Shown: positions 10,372 to 62,300 of the stretch, piece by piece
Position numbering within the stretch: the first letter of the stretch is position 1
Layout of the letters: every line of letters starts with the position of its first letter
Assembly (NCBI GenBank): GCA_029261065.1
Contig: JAJDCB010000024.1
Location: forward strand, 102,364-166,363
From: Candidatus Omnitrophota bacterium
GTDB lineage: Bacteria; Omnitrophota; Gorgyraeia; Zapsychrales; Zapsychraceae
Direction: 5' to 3'
Length of the DNA: 64,000 nt
Notes under the pieces: model-generated
What the model saw: only the letters and a program-made list of their open reading frames with translations
Database searches by the model: none
What the model was told of the DNA's origin: nothing
Program-made: the position numbers and the translations under genes

Positions 10372-11487
10372 TTATTTTTCTATTGGATCATACCAAATCC
10401 TATAAATGGCATTGGCATAATCATCTGAAATAAGTAACGCCCCATCAGGCATAACTAAAACATCAACTGGGCGTCCCCAAGGCTTTTCTCCTTCTAACCA
10501 ACCTTCAGCAAAAACTTCGTAATTTACGGGCTTGTTGTTTTGAAGTGTTACTAATGTAATGCGATATCCAATCTTTTTACTTCTATTCCATGATCCATGT
10601 TCTGCTATAAAAATTTGATTGTGATAATTCTCTGGAAACATCTCTCCTGTATAAAATCTCATTCCTAAACTAGCAACATGTGGGCCCAATTCTTGGGCTG
10701 CAGGAGTAAATTCATCACATTTTTCTTTTTTTCCAAACTTTGGATCCGCAATATTTTTACCATGACAATAAGGAAAACCAAAATGCATCCCCTTCTTCGG
10801 CGCATGGTTTAGTTCATCTGGTGGGAGCTCATCTCCTAGCCTATCGCGACCATTGTCCGTAAACCACAACTCATTATTTTTGGGATGCCAGTCAAATCCA
10901 ACAGAATTACGAATTCCTTTTGCATATATTTCCTGATTTTGACCCGTTTTATCCATTCGCATAATCGAAGCAAAACGATCATCCTTTTTTTCACAAACGT
11001 TGCAAGGGGCCCCCACAGGAACATAAAGTTTTTCATCAGGTCCAAAACGAATAAATTTCCATCCATGCCATTTTTCTTTTGGGAGTTGATCATAAACAAC
11101 TATAGGTTTAGGCGGTGCTGACAGATGTTCTTCAATATTGACTAATTTCGTTATTCGACTAATTTCGCTTATATATAAATCTCCATTTTTATAAGCCACA
11201 CCATTTGGAGAATTTAGGCCTTCGGCCAAAATATATATTTGATCCGCTTTGTTATCCTTATTTCTATCAACAATGGCATAAACTTTATCTAGTTTTCGTG
11301 TTCCTACAAAAACGACACCGGAATCGCTCAAACTTAGACTTCTTGCATTAAAAACATTTTTAGCGTAAAAATCTATATGAAAACCATGGGGAAGTTTAAT
11401 TTTATCTAAGGGTGACGCATAAGTGAGGCTTACAAATGGAAGAGTATAGATAAGGAAGATGAAACTAGATCTTAGAAACACATTCAT
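10372..11487 (-). CDS. Secreted PQQ-dependent sugar dehydrogenase family protein (soluble aldose/sorbosone dehydrogenase-like beta-propeller)
   Basis: Signal peptide. Family-typical blocks (GPDGKLYV, PDGALLISDD, YGFPYCHG). Assignment by similarity recall only. Confidence 0.55.
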   Translation of the reverse strand: MNVFLRSSFIFLIYTLPFVSLTYASPLDKIKLPHGFHIDFYAKNVFNARSLSLSDSGVVFVGTRKLDKVYAIVDRNKDNKADQIYILAEGLNSPNGVAYKNGDLYISEISRITKLVNIEEHLSAPPKPIVVYDQLPKEKWHGWKFIRFGPDEKLYVPVGAPCNVCEKKDDRFASIMRMDKTGQNQEIYAKGIRNSVGFDWHPKNNELWFTDNGRDRLGDELPPDELNHAPKKGMHFGFPYCHGKNIADPKFGKKEKCDEFTPAAQELGPHVASLGMRFYTGEMFPENYHNQIFIAEHGSWNRSKKIGYRITLVTLQNNKPVNYEVFAEGWLEGEKPWGRPVDVLVMPDGALLISDDYANAIYRIWYDPIEK

Positions 11488-15885: not shown

Positions 15886-16248
15886 TCAAGTTAACGCCTT
15901 AGAAATCGCCTCAAGAACTCTTGCATCATCAAATGGTTTAACAACATAATCAACAGCCCCTAAACGAATTGCTTTCATTAAGGATTCTCTTTGGTCAATG
16001 GCTGTAACCATTATAATTTTTGCAGCCTTGTCAAAGGCAAGAATTTCTTCTAAAGCTTCAATACCAGTTTTCTCAGGCATAACTATATCCATTGTAACTA
16101 AATCAGGCTTTAGATCCTTGTATAACTTCACAGCTTCTTCACCGTTGTTCGCCTCACCTACAACCTCATAACCCTGTTCTGTCACAATATTCTTTAACTT
16201 TAAACGAATGATTGGCGCATCATCAGTTAATAATAATTTTTTTGACAT
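15886..16248 (-). CDS. cheY: Chemotaxis response regulator CheY
   Basis: LLLTDD ... VTMDIVMPEKTG ... IIMVTA ... YVVKPF. 120 aa, single domain. Confidence 0.85.
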   Translation of the reverse strand: MSKKLLLTDDAPIIRLKLKNIVTEQGYEVVGEANNGEEAVKLYKDLKPDLVTMDIVMPEKTGIEALEEILAFDKAAKIIMVTAIDQRESLMKAIRLGAVDYVVKPFDDARVLEAISKALT

Positions 16249-16265
16249 AACTATGCTCCATTTTT

Positions 16266-16916
16266 CTACTTTTCTTGCGCATAAAATTTAGTGGTAGATA
16301 TCCCCAATAATCGAATTTGTTCTATAATTTTTGCCATTTCATTGACGGATAACTGAAGATTTTTTACAAGAGGCTTTAAATCCTCCCTCTCCTCATCAGA
16401 TTTGAATTGATTTAATTTAGCTTCCAAAACGTCCAAAGACCCCATTAAGACTGCTAAGGGCTGACTTATTTTATTCGTATGCTCACCTGCCACATCTAAA
16501 ATTGACTTTGCAGATGTCATTTCAATGGCAATAAGATGCGTATTGACACGAGCTATTAATTCTTCAGAAGATGTCCCCTTTTGAACAAAATCATTTGCTC
16601 CGGTTTTTAATAACATCACTCTCACATCATGTGATTCATTAGCCGTAATCATAATAACAACAATATGTTGTAACTCTGGGTTCGAACGTACCTTTTTTAA
16701 AAGTTTTTCACCATTTATATCAGGCATTTCATAGTCGCATAAAACGAGATCTACCTTATTATTTTCTAAATATTTTAACCCCTCACTACCAGAACCAGCA
16801 ACTGAAACCGTATACCCAGCCCCATCTAACATCGCTTTGTAAAGATCTCGTGAAGCCTGGGCATCATCAACAACTAATATTTTGTAATCTTTCTTTTTTC
16901 TTTTTAGAATGACCAT
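16266..16916 (-). CDS. Response regulator: N-terminal receiver plus about 90-aa C-terminal helical domain of unknown type (contains a His in ...AGEHTNKISQPLAVLMGSLDVLEAKL...)
   Basis: Receiver hallmarks ILVVDD, LVLCDYEMPDING, IMITA, FVQKG. The C-terminal region is helical/coiled-coil with no recognisable DNA-binding or enzymatic motif. Confidence 0.75.
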   Translation of the reverse strand: MVILKRKKKDYKILVVDDAQASRDLYKAMLDGAGYTVSVAGSGSEGLKYLENNKVDLVLCDYEMPDINGEKLLKKVRSNPELQHIVVIMITANESHDVRVMLLKTGANDFVQKGTSSEELIARVNTHLIAIEMTSAKSILDVAGEHTNKISQPLAVLMGSLDVLEAKLNQFKSDEEREDLKPLVKNLQLSVNEMAKIIEQIRLLGISTTKFYAQEK

Positions 16917-16943: not shown

Positions 16944-17351
16944 TTACACTAATTGAATATCTGATTCATTAAGCCTTGAATTTCTCAATTTTATTATTTC
17001 AATTATCTGTTTAAACATCTCCATATGAAAGGGTTTAAATATAAAATCTAGAGCCCCACTGCTTAATACTTCTTTAACTTGTGATTCTGTTGCATAACCA
17101 GCCATCATAACGGTAGTTAACAATGGATTACGCATGTGTATTGTTTTCATCAATGACATACCATTGATCATAGGAAGTCTCAGCTCTATTAAAACAACTT
17201 GATATTTCTTTTTACTCATTATTAGCATAGCTTCATCAGCATTAGAAGCAAAATCTGCACTAATATTATTAAGATTTAAATAATCAACAACGCACTTTGC
17301 AAATAATACATTGTTATCTACAACTAAAACATTGAAATCATTTGTTTTCAA
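16944..17351 (-). CDS. Atypical receiver-domain protein with Glu in place of the phospho-acceptor Asp
   Basis: Receiver fold positions VLVVDNN ... VVLIELRLPMINGMS ... TTVMMAGYAT ... IFKPF. The position equivalent to CheY Asp57 is Glu (LIELRLP). 4-bp overlap with the downstream gene. Confidence 0.7.
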   Translation of the reverse strand: MKTNDFNVLVVDNNVLFAKCVVDYLNLNNISADFASNADEAMLIMSKKKYQVVLIELRLPMINGMSLMKTIHMRNPLLTTVMMAGYATESQVKEVLSSGALDFIFKPFHMEMFKQIIEIIKLRNSRLNESDIQLV

Positions 17352-17947
17352 ATTCCAGCCCCAAAACCTAGAATGCGTTCACTCCCATCAATTGGCAGTA
17401 AATACATATGACAGTTTAATTCTGTTTCAACAATCTCAAATAAACTTTCTATTAATAAAATTTTATCTTCCTGCAAAGCCATATCCATTATTAACTCAGA
17501 GAAAAGTGTTCCAGAGAAATCACGTATAACAGAAGGTGGCTCAGGTAACATCTTTATCTGAAAGTCTGATGCAAAAACATTAGAGATGGCACTTGATAAT
17601 ATATTACCAATTTCCTGAACAGTACTTGAAACATATTCATCATATGCTTTTGTTGTACCAACCTTTTGTCCTATAAATAGATCTGTTAATATGAAAGCAT
17701 CTTCTAGTTGAACATAAAATAAAAATTTAAAGGGCGCATCGCCCGACAACAAAATAAATGATCCAATGGCCTCGAAGTCAGATTGATTTACGCTAGCCGT
17801 TATCTCTGTAATATCTACAAAATTGACATTCTTTAATTCAATTTTTGCAGTTGTGTTAAGCATCTTAGTCAATACTTCTGAGGATTTTTCAATGCTGTGT
17901 TCAGCGACTAGCTGTACCGCACGATTTACATTTTCATTTGATTCCAT
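17348..17947 (-). CDS. cheC: CheC/CheX-family CheY-P phosphatase (single recognisable active-site motif)
   Basis: S-x3-E-x2-N motif (STVQEIGN) followed by a Pro about 19-20 residues later. 199 aa. Position immediately upstream of cheD as in cheC-cheD operons. First-half motif degenerate. Confidence 0.55.
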   Translation of the reverse strand: MESNENVNRAVQLVAEHSIEKSSEVLTKMLNTTAKIELKNVNFVDITEITASVNQSDFEAIGSFILLSGDAPFKFLFYVQLEDAFILTDLFIGQKVGTTKAYDEYVSSTVQEIGNILSSAISNVFASDFQIKMLPEPPSVIRDFSGTLFSELIMDMALQEDKILLIESLFEIVETELNCHMYLLPIDGSERILGFGAGI

Positions 17948-17951
17948 TTAA

Positions 17952-18437
17952 TTAAAATTCCTCTGGTTCTTCACCAAAAACACGACAATGAACCTTACCA
18001 GTATCCAAAAAAAAATCAACTTGAACACCCTTATCTCCACCCGTTTTTGAGTTTATGATACGAATGTTGTGTTGTTTTAGAATAATTTTTGTAGCATCAA
18101 TGTTTTGTTCACCTATATTACTAGTTACCATCCTCAAAACTTTTCCTCCACCAAAAATCTTTGCCGTCAAAGAGTCTTTAGGGATTGTGTATTGTTTTTT
18201 CATTGATTCTAGTAAATCATGGATGCCTGTATCTGCAAACTTAGCACGTTTAAAAGTGGGTTTTTCATGATGACCGGATGAGTCCGGTAACATTATGTGC
18301 AGCATACCACCAATTTTTTTACTATCATCATATAAACATATGGCTATACACGAACCTAATGTTGTACGAATAACATATGGAGCTTCACCAATTTTATAGT
18401 CTCCTATACCAACGACTAACTTATTATTTTCTGTCAT
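17952..18437 (-). CDS. cheD: Chemoreceptor glutamine deamidase CheD
   Basis: VVGIGDYKIG ... LGSCIAICLYD ... GGMLHIMLPDS; catalytic Cys and His blocks present. 161 aa. Confidence 0.85.
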   Translation of the reverse strand: MTENNKLVVGIGDYKIGEAPYVIRTTLGSCIAICLYDDSKKIGGMLHIMLPDSSGHHEKPTFKRAKFADTGIHDLLESMKKQYTIPKDSLTAKIFGGGKVLRMVTSNIGEQNIDATKIILKQHNIRIINSKTGGDKGVQVDFFLDTGKVHCRVFGEEPEEF

Positions 18438-18490
18438 GTCTTAATTAGTAGTTTTGAATTTGAGATAGAATTTCGATAAGATAAACTTGT

Positions 18491-21286
18491 TTAGCGAACA
18501 TTAACTTTTTGCTGCGCTTCACGGATAATTGATGTTGCATCTAAAATAAGAGCTATACTTCCATCTCCTAAAATCGACGCACCACTTATGCCTTGGACAT
18601 CTGAAAAATGGTCCGGCAAAGATTTAATAACAATTTCGTCTTCTCCAATTAACCGATCAACTTCCACTCCAATTGTTTCATCCCCATCTGTAAGAACCAC
18701 GATTTTCCTTGAATTTTTATTTTCATTACTTTTGGTATTCATCCTTAAAATTGTTTCTAGATCAACTAGGCTTAAGGCATGACCTCTTAATTTTACTGTT
18801 GTATTTCCCTCTACTGAGAAAATGGAGTCGTCTTCAACTTTAATAATTTCAGAAACACATTCTAATGGCATAGCAAAAACTTGATTATTGATAACCACTA
18901 AAAGAGCTTGAATAATGGCTAAAGTAAGAGGAATCTTAATGCTAAAATTTGTTCCTCGACCAAGTTCAGTATCGATTTCTACCGTTCCATTTAATTCTTC
19001 AATAGTTCTACGCACAACATCCATACCAACACCACGACCTGAAATACCGGTAATTTGTGCAGCTGTACTAAAACCTGGCATAAATATGATTTGAAATTTT
19101 TCTTTCTCTGTCATTTGATCTAGCTTTTCTTGTGTCAGTATTCCTTTTTCTAAAGCTTTTTCAGATAGTTTGTTTGAGTCCAACCCTTTACCATCATCAT
19201 TAATTTGGATACATATATTATTTCCTTCATAAGATGCTGACAATTTAACTGTTCCCGCTGCTGGTTTATCTGTTAGAGCTCTATCTTCGGTTGTTTCTAT
19301 ACCGTGATCAACAGAATTTCTAATCATATGTGTTAAAGGGTCCCCCAATTCATCAACAATTTTTTTATCAAGCTCTGTTTCTTCACCATAAATCTCTAAA
19401 TTAATATCTTTTTTTAATTCTTTAGCAATATCGCGAACCAACCTTTTAAAACGAGTAAAAACGCCCTCAATAGGAACCATCCTCGTTGACATCACACCTG
19501 ATTGGATGTCGCTTGATAATTTACTCAAAGCGCTGGTCGCCTCATCGAGACTATAAAGTTTTGTGTTAACCTCTTTCATTGAAAGTTTGTTCGATAAATT
19601 AAACATCTCAGATTCCAGTAAGCCAAAAATTTTATTCAATCTATTTGCATTTGCATTCTCATCCCCGAGTGATTGGGATGAATTTTTTCTTAACGCCATC
19701 TTTAATTCAGCAATTTTTCCACCAACTTGACTTAAACGCGTAACATTTTCCTTTGATTGTGAAACTTCATGTTTAACCTCACTAACCAACTGTGCAAATT
19801 TTGCTCTCGTAATTACAAGTTCTCCTGCTAAATTCATAAGGCTATCTAGCCTCCTAGTATCGATACGCATTGTTGTCACTTCAACGCCAGCAGTTTTGGT
19901 TGTTGATGGTGTTTCTTTTTCTTTCATAGCAACCTCTTTTTTTACAGTTTTTGTTGGATTTGCCGTTTTTGTCGTAGGAGCAACTTCTTGAACTAAAGAG
20001 ACTTCTTCTTTTTCAATATTAATTACTTCAATTTGATCAATGCTAATGGCAATATCAATGTCCTTTAACAATTTTGAGGTTGTCAAAATGACACCAACGT
20101 ATACGGCCGTTTCTACATTATCATCGATTAATTCGACATCAGGTTTACAATGAATAATTTCTCCTAGCATGGCTAATTTTTCATTACAAACATTTGCTTT
20201 AATGTTTTTTGTTACACAATTTGCATCAACAGCATAACTGACTCGAAACACATTTAATCCATCTTTTGTTGCATTCTCTTTTAAAGCTGTCAAGTTTTCA
20301 GGCAAATCACTAAATAATTGTGAAACATCAACAGAGTCACCTGTCGTTTCATTAAGAGATTTAGTTGATTTTTCAAGTTTTAATTTATCAATACATTTTT
20401 GAAGCTTTTGAATGACATCAGTATTATTCAAAAGGGCATAGTTTGTTTCGCGAATTTGAGCTGCGGAGTTTTTTATCCAATCAATCCCTATAAATAATGT
20501 AGAAACTATATCCGATTCAGGAACTAGCTTTTCTTCCCTGTATTTTGACAACAAATCTTCCATTTTATGCGCAACAAGTTCAATATCGTTTCTTTTAATT
20601 ATGCCAGATGAGCCTTTGATGGTATGTGAAATTCGAAATAATTCATTAACAGCTTCAATAGGATCAACTTTATTTTCTTCAAGTTGAATCATAACTTCAT
20701 TAAAACGATCAATATTTTGAAATGTATCATCTAAATAAGCTCCCACATATTTTAAAAAATCCTCGCTAGGGGCAGCTACTTCAGTCGCGGCTTCTACAGG
20801 CGGCGTTATTTTTTCTTGAGAAACACCAGCTTCTTCACTTGTCGTTTTAGCAGAATCTGTTTTCCCTGATGTTCCATCTAAAACGGCTTTTATTTCAGTA
20901 ACAACATCAGTGGTGTCCCCTTCATCCGTACCATCCGATTTTAAACGGTCCAATAAAGAACTCAATGTATCAAAAGCGTTGAATAAAACATCTATAATAT
21001 CAATTGTAAGCACAAGTTCACTATTTCGAACACGATCAAGAATGGTTTCCATCTCATGCGTTAATCCTGAAATATTTGAAAAATCAAGAAAACTTGCGGT
21101 GCCCTTAATCGTATGTGCCGCCCGAAACATTGTGTTTATCATATCTACAGAGACTTCTTCATCATTCTTAAGAATTTCTTCAGCTTTAAGAAGATTATCA
21201 TTTAACTCTTGTAGATATTGTTCACTTTCTGAGAGGAATTCAGCAATAATTTCGCTTCTATCATCGTCTATCTCTGAGTCACTCAT
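18491..21286 (-). CDS. cheA: Chemotaxis histidine kinase CheA with two N-terminal Hpt (P1) domains
   Basis: Two H-x-x-K-G phospho-His motifs (AAHTIKGTASFL; ISHTIKGSSGII) separated by a Ser/Thr/Glu-rich linker. HATPase_c blocks (HGIE..., GRGVGMDVVR) and a C-terminal CheW-like P5 domain. 931 aa. Confidence 0.95.
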   Translation of the reverse strand: MSDSEIDDDRSEIIAEFLSESEQYLQELNDNLLKAEEILKNDEEVSVDMINTMFRAAHTIKGTASFLDFSNISGLTHEMETILDRVRNSELVLTIDIIDVLFNAFDTLSSLLDRLKSDGTDEGDTTDVVTEIKAVLDGTSGKTDSAKTTSEEAGVSQEKITPPVEAATEVAAPSEDFLKYVGAYLDDTFQNIDRFNEVMIQLEENKVDPIEAVNELFRISHTIKGSSGIIKRNDIELVAHKMEDLLSKYREEKLVPESDIVSTLFIGIDWIKNSAAQIRETNYALLNNTDVIQKLQKCIDKLKLEKSTKSLNETTGDSVDVSQLFSDLPENLTALKENATKDGLNVFRVSYAVDANCVTKNIKANVCNEKLAMLGEIIHCKPDVELIDDNVETAVYVGVILTTSKLLKDIDIAISIDQIEVINIEKEEVSLVQEVAPTTKTANPTKTVKKEVAMKEKETPSTTKTAGVEVTTMRIDTRRLDSLMNLAGELVITRAKFAQLVSEVKHEVSQSKENVTRLSQVGGKIAELKMALRKNSSQSLGDENANANRLNKIFGLLESEMFNLSNKLSMKEVNTKLYSLDEATSALSKLSSDIQSGVMSTRMVPIEGVFTRFKRLVRDIAKELKKDINLEIYGEETELDKKIVDELGDPLTHMIRNSVDHGIETTEDRALTDKPAAGTVKLSASYEGNNICIQINDDGKGLDSNKLSEKALEKGILTQEKLDQMTEKEKFQIIFMPGFSTAAQITGISGRGVGMDVVRRTIEELNGTVEIDTELGRGTNFSIKIPLTLAIIQALLVVINNQVFAMPLECVSEIIKVEDDSIFSVEGNTTVKLRGHALSLVDLETILRMNTKSNENKNSRKIVVLTDGDETIGVEVDRLIGEDEIVIKSLPDHFSDVQGISGASILGDGSIALILDATSIIREAQQKVNVR

Positions 21287-25980: not shown

Positions 25981-26379
25981 TTAAGAACCTCCAATTGTGT
26001 TTGTAGATTTAATATATTTTGTAAGCGTCCATTGATCAGTATCATCAATGCCGTCAAAGGAAACAGCAACGTCATATAAATTGCCTGGTTGCTCCTTTTG
26101 GCAACGTTTAACACAAGCAATTAATTCTAAAGGCTTTTCATAAGAAAGCTCCTCGGGTTTATAAAAAGTAGAGCTATATTTTTTAAAATGTGGTATATAA
26201 ATTTTTAAATTCAAAATTTCTTTTTTAGAATAGCTTTTTTTTGAATAAAACAAAAGACCACCAACACTAATATTTTTTGTCTTAGAATTTTCTTGAGTGC
26301 TAAAATTATTTCGCCTTTGACAATCTAAGGAAAAATGTTTATTCAATCGGCTGTATTTTCTTTTCTCACTTATAGACAT
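25981..26379 (-). CDS. Single-domain PilZ (c-di-GMP-binding) protein embedded in the che operon
   Basis: Canonical PilZ motifs RxxxR (RKYSR) and D/NxSxGG (NISVGG). 132 aa. 10-nt overlap with cheV upstream and abuts the MCP gene downstream. Confidence 0.75.
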   Translation of the reverse strand: MSISEKRKYSRLNKHFSLDCQRRNNFSTQENSKTKNISVGGLLFYSKKSYSKKEILNLKIYIPHFKKYSSTFYKPEELSYEKPLELIACVKRCQKEQPGNLYDVAVSFDGIDDTDQWTLTKYIKSTNTIGGS

Positions 26380-27417: not shown

Positions 27418-27771
27418 CTATAACGAATCTAAAATTTTTTTTGCTATCTCAACTGTTATTGGTTTTTTAATTAAAGAGATTGCGCCATTATCCTGTAATA
27501 TTTTCTCTCTCTCGTCGGTAGCTTCTACAGTAGTTACGATTAATTTTTGGTTTGGAAATTTAGCTTTAATATTTTTTAAAATTGTCAATCCATCTTCTGC
27601 GCCTAAATTATCATCAAGGATAATCAAATCAAAATTTTCTTGTTTATCTAATAAAGCATAAAGCCCGTCAGGATCTAATGTTGTTTTGACATCAGCACCA
27701 CACTCTAAAAAAAGATTTTTATGCTTGTTTAGTGCGAACTCGCCATTATCCAATAAACAAATTTTTGCCAA
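27418..27771 (-). CDS. Single-domain receiver protein
   Basis: ICLLDNGEF ... LIILDDNLGAEDG ... LIVTTVEA ... LIKKPI. Confidence 0.75.
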   Translation of the reverse strand: MAKICLLDNGEFALNKHKNLFLECGADVKTTLDPDGLYALLDKQENFDLIILDDNLGAEDGLTILKNIKAKFPNQKLIVTTVEATDEREKILQDNGAISLIKKPITVEIAKKILDSL

Positions 27772-28340: not shown

Positions 28341-30014
28341 TTAAGCTTCAAAGGTCTTGATTTTTTTCATCGCATCGTCTAATTTTTTTGCCGCATCCTT
28401 AGCAGATACAGTTACAATCTTCAATGTGATTTTAGACTCTTTTTTTTCTTCCTCTTCATTATTTGCTTTTTGAGCAACAGAATCATTGACTGTTTTTAAC
28501 TCATCTAATCTATTAACTTCATTACTCTTATCTTCTAAACTTGTATCATTAGAATCAGATTTTTCTGGTTGAGCAGCTTCTACTGCTTTATTTAAGGCTT
28601 CAAGAGGGTCTCTATCCTCATCGCTCTTATTTAAAGGTTCATCATCAGATTTTGTTTTTGATTCATCAAGCGCGTTTTGAAGTGCTGTTAAAGGATCAGA
28701 TTTTTCTTCTTTAGAGTCTTCAGTAGAATTACCAGGTGCCTTATTGGAATCATTAACAGCATTTTGAAGCATCGCTAAAGGATCTGCATTAGCTTCCTTC
28801 GCTTGTACACTCTTTTCGTCAGTTGGAGCAATTTTACTCAAAGCATCTAGCGCTTGTAACTTAGAGTCATTGACTGGTGTTTGGGCTGCAGAACCTTCAC
28901 TACTTTCCATAACTTTGTAAGTAAATATTATTAGAAATTGAAAATCCTCACATTTAAAATTCATTTCTAAATTGGATGTTTTTTCGGTATCACCAGAAAA
29001 TTCTAGATCAACGCCCATTACAGTAGATGGAATACTTATGTCAAAACCATAAGCTCCTTCAGCCCCCCCTAATTTCGTTTTAGCACCTCCGGCAATCATA
29101 TTAATTAATTCACCAACTCCATCCGTAACATCGGAATCAACTTCCTCAATGTCCATATATAACATTTTTGAAACAATGAGGCACGCTGCTTTTGAAGATA
29201 AACAAGCAGCGATATTTCCTTCAACCTTACCAGTCACACCAATAGAACTGACAATCCCTTCATCAGCAGAAGGCAGTATTTTCTCGTCAGTTTCTTCGAC
29301 ACTCAAAGTAAGCGTGGCTGAAAATGTATCAACGACAGCTTCTCTTAAAGCGTCTTTTAATGCCTCTTGAATTTCCATATCAGAAAATTTCCTTTCACTA
29401 GATACATTTTGATTATTGCTGATAATTGGCGTATCAACAATATTTTTTTCATCTTTTTTCAATTCAAGAGAAGAGCTATCCCCTGAAGCATCCAAAGCCG
29501 TTAATTTGTCTAATGCAGAAGTGGACGCTTCATCAACTTTAGCTGTATTTAGTTTATAATCTAAAATAGCAAGTATTTCTATATTATCTACTTTGTACTT
29601 TTTTAATATTTCGATTGTTTTGCCTTGACTATTTGACTTAACAATTTTTTTACCTCGAACGGTAGTTGGAATACTAATATCAAAAGGATGTTCTTTATCT
29701 GGTCCACCGATCCGATTTTTCATCCCACCAGCAATCATGTTAAGCAACTCGCCTATACCGTCTTTGACATCACTGTTAAGTTCCTCAATTTCCATATACA
29801 ACATTTTAGACACAATCTCACAGGCAATTTTTTCTGACATATAAATAGAAACAGTGCCTTCAAGAGATCCCGCTATTCCAATAGAACATATAAGGCTCTC
29901 CTCTACAGGTGAGATTGTGTCATCTAGGACTTCGGCTGATAACGCCATAGTTGTTTGAAAGACATCCAGAACAGATTCATTCAAAGTTACAATTAAATCA
30001 TCATGATAGGACAT
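28341..30014 (-). CDS. Tandem CheX-domain protein (two CheC/CheX-type phosphatase domains) with a long acidic C-terminal tail carrying repeated DPLxALQNA motifs
   Basis: Two D-x3-E-x2-N motifs each followed by Pro about 23 residues later (DGIGELLN...P and DGVGELIN...P) within two clearly paralogous ~150-aa halves. Tail has DPLAMLQNAV, DPLTALQNAL, DPLEALNKAV. Confidence 0.75.
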   Translation of the reverse strand: MSYHDDLIVTLNESVLDVFQTTMALSAEVLDDTISPVEESLICSIGIAGSLEGTVSIYMSEKIACEIVSKMLYMEIEELNSDVKDGIGELLNMIAGGMKNRIGGPDKEHPFDISIPTTVRGKKIVKSNSQGKTIEILKKYKVDNIEILAILDYKLNTAKVDEASTSALDKLTALDASGDSSSLELKKDEKNIVDTPIISNNQNVSSERKFSDMEIQEALKDALREAVVDTFSATLTLSVEETDEKILPSADEGIVSSIGVTGKVEGNIAACLSSKAACLIVSKMLYMDIEEVDSDVTDGVGELINMIAGGAKTKLGGAEGAYGFDISIPSTVMGVDLEFSGDTEKTSNLEMNFKCEDFQFLIIFTYKVMESSEGSAAQTPVNDSKLQALDALSKIAPTDEKSVQAKEANADPLAMLQNAVNDSNKAPGNSTEDSKEEKSDPLTALQNALDESKTKSDDEPLNKSDEDRDPLEALNKAVEAAQPEKSDSNDTSLEDKSNEVNRLDELKTVNDSVAQKANNEEEEKKESKITLKIVTVSAKDAAKKLDDAMKKIKTFEA

Positions 30015-30030
30015 AGCCTATATCCTTATG

Positions 30031-30420
30031 TTAACCCGCTGCGTTTAAAATTGGATCAATAGCTGCTTTTAATTGATCTGGTGTAAAGGGTTTTGGTATA
30101 TAACCAGCCAAATTTGGATTAGCTGCTTTTGCCTCTGCAATTTTATCATCTGTTCCCTCAGTTGTAACCATAATGACAGGTATTTCGGCAACGGCAGGCA
30201 CTTTAGCCACAGCACCGACAAATTCAATACCAGACATATTAGGCATGTTCCAATCGCACAAAACTAGGGCAACATCTTGGAAATTACCTGCTAAGGTTTC
30301 TATACCTACCGCCCCATCAGGTGCTTCTAAGATTTCATTTTCAAACCCAGCTTTTTTAATAATTTGAACAATCATTTTTCTTTGGACTCCTGAATCATCA
30401 ATAACTAGAATTTTTTTCAT
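30031..30420 (-). CDS. cheY: Chemotaxis response regulator CheY (second copy)
   Basis: ILVIDDSGVQRKMI ... LVLCDWNMPNMSG ... VIMVTT ... YIPKPF. Confidence 0.85.
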   Translation of the reverse strand: MKKILVIDDSGVQRKMIVQIIKKAGFENEILEAPDGAVGIETLAGNFQDVALVLCDWNMPNMSGIEFVGAVAKVPAVAEIPVIMVTTEGTDDKIAEAKAANPNLAGYIPKPFTPDQLKAAIDPILNAAG

Positions 30421-53386: not shown

Positions 53387-56300
53387 TTATTCGTAAGCTT
53401 CTATAAGATCCAAAGCATTATTAATTTCACTTTGTAATTCTTGAAAAACTGGATTTTGATCCCTGGGCTTATCAAATATGGTTGTTTTATCACGTTCTTG
53501 AGAAAGCAATTCTTCATACTTCTTTTTTGAATCATCTAAATCTTTAGTTAGATTGTGAATCGCTTCCTGTAAGGAGGATCTTTCCTTCATTAAAGAAAAA
53601 AGCTCACTATCTAATACTCTTTTCTGGTTTTTCAACTCATCATTAACAGACTTTTGCTCTGATAAGAGACCTTCTGTATCATTAATCTTCTTTTTAAACT
53701 CTTCAATATCTTTCTGTAGTGGACGCACATTAGTTAAAACCTTACTTTTAAAGGCTTCATCCATATTACTCATTTTGTCTTCAAGTTCATTTACCTGTTT
53801 TTGTAAAGGCACTCGAGCCTCCATAACTTTATTTTTAATCTCCCCTTCATGCGCATCTACTTCTTTTGTCAAATCATCCACTTTATATTTAAGGCTCTTT
53901 TTTTCAGACTCTTCTTGAGCCAATTCTGTTTCTAAAACATTTAACTTTTGCTTCATACGAGACAAAATTTCATCTTTCTCAGAAAGCAATTCTTTAGACT
54001 TTTCCAATTTTTTGTTAATTTTACTCATTTCTTCATTTAAGCTTAAGGCTCCAGAGCTCTCAATTTCTCTAACTTCATTCTCTTTTTCGATTAACTTTGC
54101 GGTTAAATTCTCAATTTCTTTTCTTAAAACTGATTCAGCAGCTTTAATTTTTGAAGGTAAAGCCTCTTCTGTATTTTTTAATTTTGATATCGTTGACTGA
54201 AGGAGACCTTCTGTATTCTCTCTTTCCGATTGAATATCTATTAATTGTTTCTTAATATTATCGAGGTTTCGATCCTTTTCAGCTATCAAAGCTTCCCGAT
54301 CCATAAGAGATTGTTTTAAGGATCGCACTTTCTGATCAACATCACCCTTACTTTGTTCCTTGATTTTTATAAAATCAAGGCGAACGTTTTCAATTTCACT
54401 TTTAAGAGAAGCAACTTCTGTATTCTTCTCATTTTCTAAGTTTTGATATTTTACTAATACTTCATCCCTCTCTTTAAGAGCTAATTTATAATCAGACTCT
54501 AATCCCGTCTTTAATTTTGTTTGACCAGTTTTTAATTCTGCAACAACCTTCTGATTTTCAATAACTTCTTGCTGGGCTAACTTAAGTCTACTTTCTAAAT
54601 CCAACATCTCCTTATAATATTCCTCCTTCTCTGCCTTAACCAATTTATAGTCTGTCTCCAAAGTCTTGTTTAATTTTGATTGATTTCTTTTTAACTCATC
54701 AACTATTTCTTTATTCCTAAAATTTTCTTTTTCAAACAACGCAGCTTGATCTTTTAACTCTACAATCTTTTGCAAATACTGATCTTTTTCTCTGTTAAAG
54801 ATAGACACCTTCATATCAGATTGATCATTCAATACGCTAATTTTGTTCTCAAGCTCTGTTGTCTTTTTCTGATATTCAGCAATTTTATTTCTTAATTCCT
54901 TAAAATCACTATCCTTAGTCTCAAGTTCTTTTTTAACCTTCGACATATTGCCATCAATCCCATTAAGTTGTTTTTGCAACTTATCATTTTCAATAACAGA
55001 TAAATTGAATTCTTCCTCTAATCGTTGTTTTTGTAATACAAGCTTATCTGTGTGTTGTTTTTGTTCAAGATTAATTTGATTAGAAGCCTTTAGCCGCTCA
55101 TTTAGACTCTCTTGTTGATATATTAAATCTTTTCTTAATGCCGCAATTTCTTGATCAAATTTGTCTTGAATTTGATTATTCTGTGTTTCTAATTGACTAT
55201 TAGTCCTTTTAAGGTCATTACTTTGATTTTCAGCCTCTCTAATTTTTCGCATTAAATCTTGTTTCTCATTATCAAAATTTTTTAACTGTACAGAGTTTAA
55301 TTTCTCACCCTCTTTTAAAACATCAAGACTCCTCTTTAGACCATTGATTCTTTCTAATAATGGTTTTTCAATAAGAGTTATTTTATCTGCAAACCCAATC
55401 TTCAAATTATTGACATCCTTTTGTAAATTAGAAGCACTGTTATTTAAGTTTTCATTCTCTTTTGTCAAGGACGAGACCTGGTTAATTAAATTCGAATTTT
55501 TTGATTTATAATCTGTCAAATTCGCTAACTGATTGTTAACAATATTTTGAAGATCTTTATTTTCATCAGCAGATTTAAGAAGCTTCTTATCCAAACTCAA
55601 TTTAAGATTAGAAAGAGTTTCTCGGTACTTTTCTTCAATTTCTTTTCTTTGCTCAGAAAGATCATTACGTAAGTTTTCATTTTTACTCATTACGAGATTA
55701 TTGGATCTATTTAATTCTTCAAATTTATCAGAAGCTTCCTTAAGACTTGCCTGATATCTTCTATTTTCTTCTTTTTCTACTGCCAAATTTTGAGATAATT
55801 CTGTTAATTCTGTCGTTTTAGAAACTAATTGTTTGTTCAACTTATCCAATTTCCCACCAAATTCTACCGTAGATGTATTATTTTTAGATTCCAACTGTTT
55901 AAGACGCGCGAGTAAACTTGTTTTTTCATTCTCTAAAGCAGAAAATCGGTTACTTGTCTCCTTTAATTGAGAGTTTAAATCTTGATTTTTGTTTTCTAGC
56001 TCCTGATTAACAGCCATATGATCGTTTAATTTAAGCTTTCCAGCCTCTATTTCTTTGAGTAACGGTGCCTTTTCCTCATTAATGCGTTGAGGTATAACAC
56101 TAGTGACATCACGCAACTTTATTTCTAACTTTGAGTTCTCTGTTTGCCATTTGGAATTCGTTTCCTTTTCGTTATTTAATCGAGTAAGAAGATCGTTGTT
56201 CTCATCATTAAGCAGTGACATTTCTTGAGAATTTGTTTTAATTTGGTTCGAAAGATTCGTTTTCTGCTTTTTAAAATCTTCAATTTCTTTTCTTAAAGGA

Positions 56301-59300
56301 GCTTGGGCCATCTCAACTAAACTTGGGATATCACTTTCCCTTTGTTTAAGCTGCTCTTCTAATAGAGATATATTATTACTTTTCTTGACAAGATCTTCTT
56401 CAAATGTGCTAACAAGTCCCTGCAGCTCCTTTTTTTCGACTACTAGTTGTTCTTCGGTAATTTTTAACGTGCTATATGAATTTTGAATTTCTTGATTTTT
56501 ATTCTTTAATTCTTGAATTTGACTATTTAATTGAGAAGTTTCACCTGCAAACTTCTCACTAGAGGCCTTTATCTGATTTAATAGATTCTTTTTTAATTGA
56601 GCAATTTCTTCATTTAACGCCTCTTTAGATTGTTTACTTTTTAAATTCAAACCCACAATAGACTCTTGTGCTTTTTGTAATTTATTAGATAATTGAGATA
56701 TTTCAGACTCAAAATCTCTATTTTTGCCATTTAATGAAGCAATTTCATTTACAAGTTTAGAATTATTACTTTTAAGTTCATTTTTCTGCGCACTAAAAAC
56801 TTGGATTTCTTCTTCTTTTTCTCTTATAAATTTTTGCTTAATATTCTTTATACGGGCCTCCATTTCATTTTTTTCATTAAACAAGGCTGTATATTCAATA
56901 CTCTTATCTTTAAATTGTTTTAATAACGTTTCTTTTTCCTTTAAATTCTGAGATATTACAAGCTCTTTATTTTTTAATTGCGAACTTATATCTGTTATTT
57001 TTTTTTCTAAAATGGATTCTTGTAATTCTAAAGGCTTTCGAGCTTCAGCCAATTGTTTGGGAATGTTATTTTCAATTTCTTGTTTAACTTTGGCCAAATT
57101 TTCTAATTTTTCATTTAACTGAATAACGTTTTGACCTAATTTTTCTAAATCCGTTTTGTATTTATTATTTGAATTGGTGAGTCTTTGTATTGTCTTTACT
57201 TGAGCTGAATTTTGCTGATCTTTCTTTTGAAAGGTAAGTTGCAGCTCTTTATATTTTTCATTTAACTGAATTAGCCTCTGATCAACTTTTCCTAAGTCCG
57301 CTTTATATTTATTGTTTGAACTGGTGAATGCATCTATTGTCTTTTCTTGAGCTAAGTTTTGCTGATCTTTCTTTTGAAAGGTAAGTTGCAGCTCTTTATA
57401 TTTTTCATTTAACTTCTCAAGTGTCACATTTAATTTCTTAAAATTTAATTGAGAGCTGTTCACTTGATTCGAAGCCTTCTTAACATCTGACTCTAACTGC
57501 GCAATAATCTTTGTTTTATCTAAAAGGTTTGCATTTAATTCACTTTTCTGAGTATTAATATTACCCAATTTTTTCTCAAATTCCGATTTTGCTGAATCTA
57601 GAAGCTGCTGATTTTTTAAAACAATTTGATCCACTTTCGCCTTTAAGGCATCTACTTGAGCTAATAAATTTGTTTCTTTTTGTGATTTTACTTCTAGACT
57701 ATTTGATAAGCCCTTTATTTGCTTCTCTAAAGACGCAACATGAGCTTCTTTATCTTTAGTAATGTTTTCAGCATTTTTTAGTTTCATCTCATTTTGACTT
57801 ATATTATCTCTAAGGGTTTGCTTTTGAACTTCATGTTTATCGGTTAATGCTTCAAAAGCCTTTACATTTTCTTTCTTCAAAGTTTCAATTCTTGTGTTTA
57901 ATTGCGCAACAGCATCATTTGCCTTGCCTAATTTTGTGATAATATCTGTTTTGTTTTCTTCTAAATTTCTTGAGTTCTTAATTTCATTGTTTAAATTTTC
58001 ATTAACACCCCTTAAATGCCCTTCTAACGTTTTAATTTCATTTAACAAAGGTGTGGTCTCTTTCGATATTAGAGCAGGCATAGCTTCTTTGGTTGCTTTC
58101 AAGGTGGTCTCTACAGCTACTTTTTGCTTAACTAAATCCTCTTGTTGAACTTTTAAATTTGTTAAATTCGACTGTAAAGAAGCATAAGACTTCGTTAACT
58201 CTTGAAATTTTTGTGTATTTTGTTTAATAGCACCTTTTTTTTCCTCTAATAAATTCTTAAAAGACAACAACTGCTCATTTAATGGCTTTTTAACCAATTC
58301 GATCGTTTTTGGAATTTCATTTTTTATCTTAACAATTTTATTTTCTAAATCATTAATAACATTTGCTTGATTTTTCAACTCTTTGGCTTGTGCCTTATTC
58401 ACAACTTCTTTTTTTGTAACTGTATCCCTTAAATTGGCTACATCTTTAGATTTACTCTTTATAGTCTTAGTTATTTGCTCATTACTATCCTTTAAACTTT
58501 TAATTTGAAGCTGATAATCTTTTTCTAATTTCGATAACTTTAAATTTGCAGCTGTTTTATCTTTTTTCCAATCTGCGTTTGCTTTAACCCATCTGTTGTC
58601 TTTTTCACTAATCGCACCAGATAAATCTTTTATTTTGTTATTAAGATCGGCATTTTTATTATTTAATACTAAAAATGTTTTTTCCTGTTCCTTTATAAAT
58701 ACATTTTTTTGCTTAAAACCTTCTGTTAATTGAGCAATTTCGCTTAATAAGGGAGCCTTTTGTGCATCAATCATTCCAGGAATATTTGCCTTTGTCGTAT
58801 TTAAATTTTCAGTTAATTTTGCTACGTTCTCATTAGACGTTGATAGCTGACTGTCCGTGTCGTTAAGCTTGTTAACTAATTCTTTGCTTTGAGCATTTAA
58901 AGAATCATACGCCCCATTACGCTCATAAAGCTCATTTTTTATTTTTACAATTTGATCCTTAAGAACCCCCATCTCTTTAAAAAGCGGTTCTTTAGCCTTC
59001 TTTATCTGAGCAGGGATAGTCTGCTTTACAGAGGTTAATTCTTCACCCTTTTGATTTAACAAATCTTGTAATTTCTTTCGATTTGCCGCATCTAATTTTT
59101 GTTGACTTAATAACCGCCCTTTTTGTTTCTCCATTTCAGAGACGGAGTTCTGATAACTCTCCAAAGCCTTTGTTAACTCAACTATTTTGTTATCTGATTC
59201 CTTTAATTTAAATTGTAATGGATCACGAACCTTAGCAATCTGTTGTGGAACACTCATTTTCAGATTATTAAAATTTTCCGTTAATTTATTAATATCGCTA

Positions 59301-62300
59301 ATTTTCTTTTTATTCTGAATGCTTAACGTTTCTATAGCCGTATTATTCTTTGATAATTCATCCCTTTGCTTCTCTATAAGAGCATCTTTGGTCTTTCCAG
59401 ATGTAGCAAATTGATTTATCTTCTGATTTAAGCCATTAATCTTATTCTCTAATGGCTTCTTGGCTTGCGCAATTTGTGATGGATAAGCCGCTTCTTTTTC
59501 TTTGATGATATTCGCATAATTCTTCACTTTCTTCTCTAGATTAGTCTTTACTGATGAAACCTTCATCACGGATTCTTCAGAGTCTTGTAGAAGTTTATTT
59601 AATTCAGAGATTGAAATACTCTTATCTTCTATATCATCAGTTAGAACACTTAATTGTTTTTGTTGTGCAGCAATCTTCTCATTTAAAGGCTTTAAGGATG
59701 CAAGAAGATCACGATTATATTTTTTATTGGCAACAACTAGGGCGTTATCTAATTCAGAGGCCTTAGTTTGAAAGTGATCGGACTGCTCTTTTAAAGCATC
59801 CATTTTTTGCTTTAAACTATTGCGTTGTAGCTCAGCATTGCGGATTGATTTATCTTTGTTTTCTACACTTTGAGTAAGTTGTTTCACCTGCCTATTTAGA
59901 GATGAATTTTCCTTCTCTAAAGGTGTCTTTGCCAAAGAAATCTGTTGAGGGATGCTTTTCTTTAATCGATCAGAACTTGCTAGCTGGGCATCTAACTTTT
60001 TTTGATATTCGCTAATAACTTCCGTTTGCGTTAAGACTTTTTGAGTTAACGTTTCTTTTTCTTTATTTAAAAAGACTAACGACTTCTCCCTTGCTTTATT
60101 TGCATTATCTAGAGTATTTACTTTGTTAAGTAACTGTGAGGCTTTCTCCTCTAACGGTCGCGTGGCTTCACTAAGTTGCTGGGGAATCGATTTAACAGTA
60201 TCATCCAATTTCTTCTCAAGAGCTGTCTTTGCTTTAGATAGAAAAGATTCGCTTTCTTGTAATTTCGTATAGCTTTCTTTTAAACGTAATTGATCTGCGT
60301 TTAATTTTTGTAAAAGCGATGCCTTTTCAGATAAATTCACAGTTAATTGCTGAAGTTTTTCTTCCAATGGTTTTTTGGCTTGTTGTATTTCAAGCGGTTT
60401 ATTCTTTAAAGTATTGCTTAGTTTTGCTTGCGAGAGATTTAAATTTTGCTCATACTTTTTTATCTCAACACTTGACTTTTGTAATTGGCTTATTAAACTT
60501 TCCTTCTCTAAATTTAAATTTTTTAATAGTTTTTTGTTTTCTTCATTAATTTTTAAATATTCGGATTCCATAGATTTGGCATTTGCTTTGCTTTGCTTCA
60601 AAGCATCAGCTAAGCGCGAACTATTGCCTTCATAAGTCCTCTTCTCTTCAGCTAAAGATTTTTGCAAATCAGAGACTTTAGAATTTAAAGGATCTCTCAC
60701 CGCATTTACTTTTAGAGGAATACTTGCTTCTAACTGTTCGAACTTCTTAGCCAACTGATATAATTGCTTCTCCGTATTATCTTTGGCCACCTTTAAAGAT
60801 TTAAAGCTATTCGTCATAGTCTTATTTTCATTTACAATTTCTTGAACACTTACTTGACTGCTCTTTAAATTTTCCGTTGTTGTTATAAGACTCTTTGTTA
60901 ATTCTTTAATCCTGGCTTCTAATGGCTGCTTTACTTTTTCAATTTCTGTAGGAATGCTCGAGATAAGCTCAGCATTCTTTTGTTCCAAACCGCCCTTTGA
61001 TTTTGACAATAAAAGATTTTGTTCTTTTAATTTTTGAAGTTCTGTGATCTTTTGCTTATTCCCTTTATCCAGCTCAACAATGAGTCCATCCTTTTTATTT
61101 AATTGCGCATCGCTTAAAGATAATTTCTTATTTAATTCAGCCATTTGAGCTTTAAGCGGCTCTTTCGCTAATTCAACTTTTGAAGGTAAAGATTTTTTTA
61201 GTGCATCCAATTCTTTACTCAGTTGATTAACCTCAGCATTTAAATTATTCCTCAAAGTAAAAAGTTTTTCTTTATCAGAATTTAACGAATTAACTTTATT
61301 GCTATAATTTTTTAAATTTAGATTTCTTTGTGACAGAGTCTCTTTTAGATCAGCAACAGTGTTTTCAAGCGGCAATTTGGCTTCTTTTAGTTTTGCTGGC
61401 CAAGCTTGATTTTGTTTTGAGAGTTCTGAAGCGAGCTTTTTTCTCTCTGACTCTACTTTGATGAGCGTATCTTTAAGCTCTAGAAGACTATTTTCTTTTG
61501 CAGTATTTAGTTGTTTAAGTTTCTCCTCAGAGCTTTTAAAACTTACTTCTTTCAATTGTAACGTTTTATTTTGCTCCGCTATTCTTTTCTCTAAAGGTAA
61601 CGTTGCTTTTCTTATCTCTACAGGTAATTTTTTCTTAAACAGATCAAATTCTTTAACAATTGCTTTTCTTTGATTCTCAGAATTACGGAAGGCTGTATTT
61701 CTATTATCAAGATTATTTTGAAGATCTGAAATTGTTTTCACTAAAGGCGTACGCACAGATTGAATTTGATTAGGCAACGCTGCATTTAATTGTTTAATTT
61801 CATCTTTAAGAACTACAACCTCTTTATTACTTGCATCTAAGGCTTGTTTTCTCTGATTTGAAATAGCCGCTAATTTACTCTTTTCAGCTGAACTAGAAAG
61901 TTCTTTCTCTTTTGAAACAAGTAATTGTTTTTGGAAGCTTTGTAATTGTTCTTCTAAAGGTTTCTTAACACGACTTATTTCAGCAGGAATAGAGGCTTGT
62001 AACTTTTTAACTTCAGAAGTTAAAGCAGCAACCTTTGAATCTTTTGTTTCAAGAGCACCACCCTGTACTTTTAATTGAGTCACTAAAACAGAGATCTTGC
62101 TAAGTAGAGGCTCTTTGCTATCTTTAATTTGCTTTGGAATATTCCCTTTTAGAGCTCTTAATTGAGAATCTTTGGTTTTAATCTCTTTTGAAAGGGCTGT
62201 AAAATTAGCTTGGATGTTACTGTATTTGCTGAGAGTCTCTTTTCTGGATTGCGATTCTTTGGACAATTGCGATTCTTTTAAAGCAAGCTGCTTCTCTAAT

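Follow-up and report, generated by a model that had tools for sequence, protein, structure and literature searches.

A small gene inside a chemosensory (che) operon of an Omnitrophota bacterium encodes a stand-alone receiver domain, here called PsR, in which the phospho-acceptor aspartate and two further catalytic residues are replaced. Judging from its sequence and those of its relatives, we conclude that PsR is probably a phosphorylation-incompetent single-domain pseudo-receiver. Its ancestor would have been a canonical accessory receiver, to whose partner PsR most likely still binds. Because sister lineages have kept the canonical state, the transition can be polarised and appears to be recent.

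The PsR reading frame and its product

The gene was found in a 64-kb stretch of DNA (the whole stretch that was analysed, hereafter the window), on the minus strand and within a long operon whose genes, in the order of transcription, encode a 557-aa CheX-domain protein, Hpt, a 117-aa receiver, CheV, a PilZ protein, MCP, CheW, CheR, CheB, CheA, CheD, a CheC-like protein, PsR, a 216-aa REC+DHp-like protein, and CheY (Table 1). The placement of the gene inside a Che operon in the first-pass annotation is therefore confirmed by the flanking che genes. The start codon of PsR and the stop codon of the CheC-like gene upstream share a 4-nt overlap (TTGA), and the frame is unbroken over 135 codons in a gene of 29% GC.

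Table 1. Positions in the window of the PsR gene, its active-site codons, and the adjoining che genes
Feature	Position	Strand	Description
PsR ORF	16944..17351	minus	Single-domain pseudo-receiver, 135 aa, TTG start; pattern D12-N13-E56-A84-K106
Asp12 Asn13 codons (GAT AAC)	17313..17318	minus	First acidic position (DD1) kept; second, metal-binding position (DD2) replaced by Asn
Glu56 codon (GAG)	17184..17186	minus	Phospho-acceptor (CheY Asp57) column; C-terminal end of predicted strand beta3
Ala84 codon (GCT)	17100..17102	minus	Conserved Thr/Ser (CheY Thr87) column; end of strand beta4
Lys106 codon (AAA)	17034..17036	minus	Active-site Lys (CheY Lys109 column), conserved; Pro107 and Phe108 come next
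CheC-like phosphatase homologue	17348..17947	minus	199 aa, upstream of PsR; stop overlaps PsR start
REC+DHp-like protein	16266..16916	minus	216 aa, downstream of PsR; canonical DD/D/T/K; conserved neighbour of the small receiver family
Canonical CheY	15886..16248	minus	120 aa, last gene of the module
CheA and CheD	17952..21286	minus	CheA 18491-21286, CheD 17952-18437; immediately upstream of the module

The 135-aa product matched the Pfam profile PF00072 (Response_reg) with a score of 73.7 bits (E 1.7e-20; GA 30.2), and the match extended over profile positions 1-110 of 111. Matches to 142 distinct PDB sequences were also obtained, the best of them being Aquifex NtrC1. In an AF2 model prepared from 14 sequences (pLDDT 88.5, pTM 0.83), PsR adopted the canonical (beta-alpha)5 fold, with strands predicted at residues 7-11, 31-35, 52-56, 79-84, and 102-105 and the active-site positions lying C-terminally on beta1, beta3, beta4, and beta5, and comparison of the model with solved receivers by Foldseek yielded TM scores of 0.8-0.88. 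We conclude that the PsR ORF encodes a true receiver domain, well beyond what could be expected by chance.

Active-site residues

The canonical receiver set of five residues (DD, D, T/S, K) reads D-N-E-A-K in PsR, i.e., three of the five catalytic residues are replaced. Glu56, which lies in the motif 'VVLIELRLP', occupied the acceptor column in HMMER alignments to NtrC1 and PmrA, in a MAFFT alignment with E. coli CheY, Spo0F, and two neighbouring receivers, and in a phmmer alignment with E. coli CheY as a query. The assignment of a Glu to the Asp57-equivalent position by the first-pass annotation, which had called for a check of this column against receiver alignments, is thus borne out: every alignment places Glu (codon GAG), and not Asp, there. 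Across 406 alignments of similar receiver domains (query counted), the acceptor column contained Asp in 388 cases and Glu in nine, and PsR was the only one of the ten receiver domains in the window that lacked the acceptor Asp.

The rest of the active site had been described as a set of clean receiver landmarks, a description that does not hold. The Lys of 'IFKPF' was correctly recognised, since Lys106 is the conserved Lys in the alignments. The acidic pocket assigned to 'VVDNN' is half right: Asp12 is the first acidic residue, but Asn13 stands where the second, metal-binding one would be expected. The Thr/Ser column, which was sought among the Thr residues of 'TTVMMAGYAT', corresponds to none of them but to Ala84 of 'MMAGY'; this residue is aligned with the T of the NtrC1 motif 'ITGHG', and T or S is present in the same column in 369 of the 406 similar domains. 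The DD2 and T/S columns are therefore replaced as well, so that there are three losses and not one, and the correction strengthens the reading of PsR as a pseudo-receiver. Residues kept in PsR include DD1, K, the aromatic residue at K-3 (Phe103), Pro at D+4, and Gly at both D+8 and T+1.

Comparison with CheY models gave no indication that PsR could be counted as one. No CheY model was present among the best 25 of the 91 NCBIfam families matching PsR; the best matches were of the NtrC type (AtoC, LuxO, ZraR, NtrX), all of them far below the cut-offs. In the phmmer comparison with E. coli CheY, PsR was the weakest of the ten window receivers (20.6 bits). The 120-aa neighbour scored 123 bits against CheY_Halo, which is below the curated cut-off of 200. 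As far as profile matches can tell, PsR is not a CheY, and the CheY candidates of the region are the 120-aa and 129-aa neighbours.

Relatives of PsR and gene order

When 5.8 billion proteins were searched by a word index with the 135-aa PsR as a query, PsR itself was the only match. From 1.84 billion representatives, a full search with HMMER recovered 79,962 receiver matches, none with more than 34% identity to PsR. The ranking of these matches was dominated by multi-receiver proteins with summed domain scores, and the matches were re-ranked per domain. In the per-domain ranking, the best single-domain matches, with 84-63 bits and above generic receivers, belonged to a family of small receivers. 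A profile search seeded with the receivers of two Omnitrophota che loci, L003 and L006, recovered about a dozen members of this family, which consists of single-domain Omnitrophota receivers of 131-140 aa (P0273-P0283 and P0124). Against an HMM constructed from the relatives alone, PsR scored 113 bits over its full length; no other receiver in the window exceeded 66 bits. The family motifs 'MM-x-G-Y-A' and 'G-A-x-D-F-x-F-K-P-F' ('DF-x-FKPF') are present in PsR, as is an R-x-x-R tail that lies C-terminally, beyond the Pfam domain, and whose residues R123 and R126 are invariant in the family. With 28-37% identity to its relatives, PsR is the outlier of the family. A search of the rest of the 64-kb window with the family HMM found no canonical paralogue. 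A separate peculiarity of the core family is that it lacks the near-universal Pro at D+4 ('DVRLKQFSG'), so that the beta3-alpha3 loop of the canonical relatives is atypical; the Pro is kept in PsR ('ELRLPMING') and in P0124 ('DVNMPGITG').

CheA and CheD were used to find orthologous operons. CheA homologues with a named source came mostly from Candidatus Omnitrophota, the best being 46-49% identical, and nine comparable Omnitrophota che loci (the window and L002-L009) were compared. In L003 (11817-12218) and L006, the gene after the CheC-like one encodes a 133-aa receiver; the two genes again overlap by 4 nt, and genes for the REC+DHp-like protein and CheY come next. The order CheC-like, small receiver, REC+DHp-like, CheY is common to the window, L003, L006, and L009; L008 begins at a contig end, and only the small receiver and then the REC+DHp-like gene are visible. 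The remaining four loci have no small receiver: a direct fusion joins the CheC-like and REC+DHp-like genes in L004 and L005, and CheY comes straight after the CheC-like gene in L002 and L007. In L007, the slot of the REC+DHp-like protein is taken by a full REC-HisKA-HATPase kinase.

Taken by its profile score, motifs, and gene order, PsR is a member of this CheC-adjacent small receiver family of Omnitrophota. Xenologous replacement by an NtrC-type receiver, which the best PDB match (NtrC1) could have brought to mind, was rejected, since gene order, the C-terminal tail, and the HMM of relatives alone all assign PsR to the Omnitrophota family.

Loss of catalytic residues in the window lineage

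All 10 full-length relatives of PsR carry DD/D/S/K, as do further copies from metagenomes; PsR alone has D-N/E/A/K. Conservation of the Glu in orthologues, which the first-pass annotation had proposed as a check, was thus not found, Asp being present in every one of them. A metagenome scan with a single pattern, DFLFKPF[HR], returned known members and unrelated receivers, all with Asp, and revealed neither a closer relative nor a second Glu variant. We therefore conclude that the D-N/E/A/K set is derived and, so far, specific to the window lineage.

The relative P0124 provides a measure of how much of the loss could be due to divergence as such. P0124 keeps 22 of 41 non-catalytic conserved columns and PsR keeps 20 of 41, i.e., the two proteins are equally divergent, yet P0124 has all five catalytic residues versus two of five in PsR. 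The triple loss is thus not simply a by-product of overall divergence. When the family-conserved columns were divided by region, those kept in PsR amounted to 10 of 14 in residues 89-108 (alpha4-beta5-alpha5) versus 12 of 32 elsewhere, a marginal difference (Fisher p=0.054). Constraint outside the catalytic site appears, from this conservation pattern, to be retained in PsR.

Possible function of PsR

We propose that the ancestor of PsR was a canonical accessory receiver, encoded between the CheC-like and REC+DHp-like genes in the main che operon of some Omnitrophota, and that in the window lineage the acceptor Asp changed to Glu, the metal-binding Asp to Asn, and the phosphoryl-contacting Ser to Ala. 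Devoid of the acceptor Asp, the metal ligand, and the phosphoryl-binding hydroxyl, PsR would carry out no phosphotransfer: it would take up no phosphate from CheA-P, Hpt, or small-molecule donors, and would be cut off from CheA/Hpt input. The claim of the first-pass annotation that a receiver with Glu at this site would be unable to undergo normal Asp phosphorylation is thus supported by the D-N-E-A-K pattern. The idea that the protein is a permanent sink is not tenable, because a protein unable to accept phosphate is no phosphate sink.

PsR keeps its receiver fold together with the Asp12/Lys106 pair, apparently also the alpha4-beta5-alpha5 face, the R-x-x-R tail, and translational coupling to the CheC-like gene. 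Within the CheC-like / REC-DHp-like / CheY module, PsR has most likely kept its ability to bind the partner of the ancestral receiver, and such binding would be set by the abundance of the protein and not by kinase input. That this module is the functional neighbourhood of PsR is suggested by the CheC-like::REC-DHp fusions of L004 and L005. A bolder version, which we put forward tentatively, is that a recent conversion from a canonical to a phosphorylation-independent receiver allowed PsR to bind the CheC-like or the REC-DHp-like protein constitutively, so fixing a bias in CheY-P turnover. If that were true, PsR and its canonical orthologues would constitute a matched pair for learning how pseudo-receivers become active without phosphate.

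Alternative explanations

The main rival to a binding protein is a decaying relic: phospho-signalling via the accessory receiver would have become dispensable, and the gene would be drifting under relaxed selection towards loss, with no remaining function. We regard this as possible, though rather unlikely. Absence of the gene from four of nine loci and its weak TTG start are in line with decay, as are the rates of evolution. The small receiver is the fastest-evolving gene of the operon, being 52.6% identical between L003 and L006, and PsR is 30% identical to its counterparts versus 48-69% for CheA, CheB, CheW, and CheY, i.e., its identity is the lowest of all operon genes. The window-to-reference identity ratio is 0.57 for the small receiver versus 0.66-0.91 for other operon genes, which indicates a further acceleration in the window lineage, and 24 of 46 core-conserved family columns are lost in PsR. 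The absence from four loci, together with the fast evolution, indicates that the small receiver is an accessory, evolutionarily labile component. Both the dispensability of the gene in other lineages and its fast evolution with lineage-specific acceleration, which is equally expected from relaxed selection, count against the reading that we prefer. Decay is, on the other hand, difficult to reconcile with the intact frame, since stop codons arise easily at 29% GC, with the 73.7-bit Pfam and 113-bit full-length family scores, with the confident prediction of the fold, and with the preserved 4-nt overlap, an arrangement for translational coupling. Nor is overall divergence alone a sign of decay, given that the equally divergent P0124, with a similar number of non-catalytic changes, is clearly canonical.

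An improbable alternative is that Glu56 mimics the phosphorylated residue and locks PsR in an activated conformation, so that it constitutively engages the target of its phosphorylated ancestor. Substitution of Glu for Asp partially activates several response regulators (PMC12632262), Glu is the commonest residue at the acceptor position of natural aspartate-less receivers (ALRs; PMC12632262; PMC4395418), and the retained Lys106 and Asp12 could pair with Glu56. The proposed mimicry works, however, via contacts to the conserved T and K (PMC12632262), and the T is Ala84 in PsR. The substitution alone is often insufficient, as in CheY, PhoB, and Spo0A, and in ChxR the Glu is not what confers activity (PMC12632262; PMC4395418). 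In addition, the residue at K+2 in PsR is Phe108, and Phe at this position is reported to bias CheY towards inactive conformations (PMC12632262). With T changed to Ala, DD2 to Asn, and Phe at K+2, an ON state has no specific support in the sequence.

That PsR is really a canonical receiver, and its replacements an artefact of sequencing or assembly or a rare strain polymorphism, is very improbable. All orthologues do carry Asp, a finding that had been taken in advance as a sign of error or polymorphism, and GAG is one base away from GAT or GAC. This inference is rejected because three separate catalytic codons are changed (AAC, GAG, and GCT), because the protein as a whole is only 28-37% identical to its relatives, and because over 10,567 nt the window is matched with 100% identity by a separate assembly, that of SRR15505515 in Logan, although both assemblies may share the same reads.

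Non-canonical covalent regulation of PsR, either by methylation of Glu56 or by phosphorylation at another residue, is hardly credible: no example of it is known, nothing in the PsR sequence resembles a receptor methylation site, and Ser56, the alternative phosphorylation site described in CheY D57N, has no equivalent here, since Ile precedes Glu56. In its favour are the CheR, CheB, and CheD genes of the same operon, and the suggestion that Glu methylation is a conceivable post-translational modification of ALRs with Glu at the acceptor site (PMC4395418).

Comparison with known pseudo-receivers

PsR matches PF00072 and lacks DD2, D, and T, which makes it a pseudo-receiver as defined in PMC12632262, and the replacement of the acceptor Asp by Glu56 makes it an ALR (PMC4395418). 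About 6% of bacterial receivers are pseudo-receivers, ca. 4% of all receivers are ALRs, and DD2 to Asn, D to Glu, and T to Ala are the commonest replacements in bacterial pseudo-receivers (PMC12632262). In ALRs, the D position is most often taken by Glu (26%), DD1 and K are usually preserved, and an acidic residue occurs at DD2 in only 29% (PMC4395418). PsR resembles the class described by Maule et al. (2015, PMC4395418) and in a 2025 J Bacteriol review (PMC12632262) both in carrying the commonest replacements and in keeping DD1 and Lys. The replacements seen in the PsR alignments are exactly the commonest published pattern; there is little new in kind here, and a specialist would not be surprised. 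The window protein differs from the class in being a stand-alone domain inside a che operon. An extra output or coiled-coil domain is carried by the best-characterised examples, ChxR, FrzS, and RitR.

In ChxR of Chlamydia trachomatis (PMC3960148), too, a natural Glu stands in place of the Asp that would be phosphorylated, and the protein needs no phosphorylation to act. ChxR binds DNA as a regulator of the OmpR/PhoB type and carries an effector domain, whereas PsR lacks an output domain and resembles NtrC-type receivers more closely. FrzS of Myxococcus xanthus is a receiver without the acceptor Asp that operates in a chemosensory/motility pathway; it binds neither Mg2+ nor a phosphoryl analogue, and acts by protein-protein interaction (PMC1974792). 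FrzS differs from PsR in having Ala at the site and a long coiled-coil domain, and in not being a che-operon single-domain protein; the sequence relationship seen between them is that of the receiver fold. Among engineered mutants with the same substitution in the same column, NtrC D54E is active and CheY D57E is not activated. These mutants keep the DD pocket and T; since DD2 and T are lost in PsR, their behaviour is not transferable to it. The closest comparison is with the Omnitrophota CheC-adjacent family itself, whose members share length, synteny, motifs, and the R-x-x-R tail with PsR, and differ from it in having DD/D/S/K.

How bacterial pseudo-receivers, which account for several percent of receiver domains, are switched on and off is largely unknown (PMC12632262). 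The D-N/E/A/K lineage and the DD/D/S/K orthologues in the same operon slot form a polarised natural pair, in which an ancestral and a degenerate receiver can be compared directly. Our literature search on pseudo-receivers inside che operons and on Omnitrophota chemotaxis found nothing specific. For annotation, PsR should be treated as neither a working CheY nor a phosphate sink in any reconstruction of chemotaxis in this Omnitrophota genome.

Other features of the operon and the window

The 216-aa REC+DHp-like protein has a sub-threshold HisKA match only and lacks an ATPase domain. Its homologues are encoded in L003 (12215-12859), L006 (10307-10954), L008 (1149-1787), L009 (978-1676), L004 (11223-12389), and L005 (9294-10466). 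The H-box column of these proteins is canonical in L009 ('AHELNNPL'), and contains Asn in the window and L003, and Asp in L006 and L008; the phospho-His of the REC+DHp-like protein thus also seems to be degenerating.

Several other genes of the operon region on the minus strand deserve mention. The second small receiver (27418-27771; 117 aa, TTG start) has Asn at DD2 ('LLDNGE') and keeps the acceptor Asp and Lys; its Thr column is ambiguous in one alignment, and under a strict definition it would be a pseudo-receiver too. A 129-aa receiver with DD/D/T/K (30031-30420) is the best match to E. coli CheY in the window (72 bits), and the operon region thus has at least two CheY-type proteins beside the accessory receivers. 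The 557-aa protein at the head of the che operon (28341-30014), with two CheX phosphatase-domain matches, is unusually long, CheX proteins in relatives being ca. 185 aa. A small PilZ-domain protein is encoded inside the operon (25981-26379), and the same is true of L002, L003, L005, L006, and L007. Across the Omnitrophota loci, the PilZ gene usually lies beside a gene for CheV or CheW, and most loci have MCP genes next to it as well; its conservation suggests an input of c-di-GMP into the chemotaxis pathway. In L003, CheD was called as two overlapping pieces of 87 aa and 79 aa (10727-11219), which suggests a frameshift or a pseudogene. Elsewhere in the window, a giant ORF with a TTG start (53387-63967, minus strand) encodes 3,526 aa.
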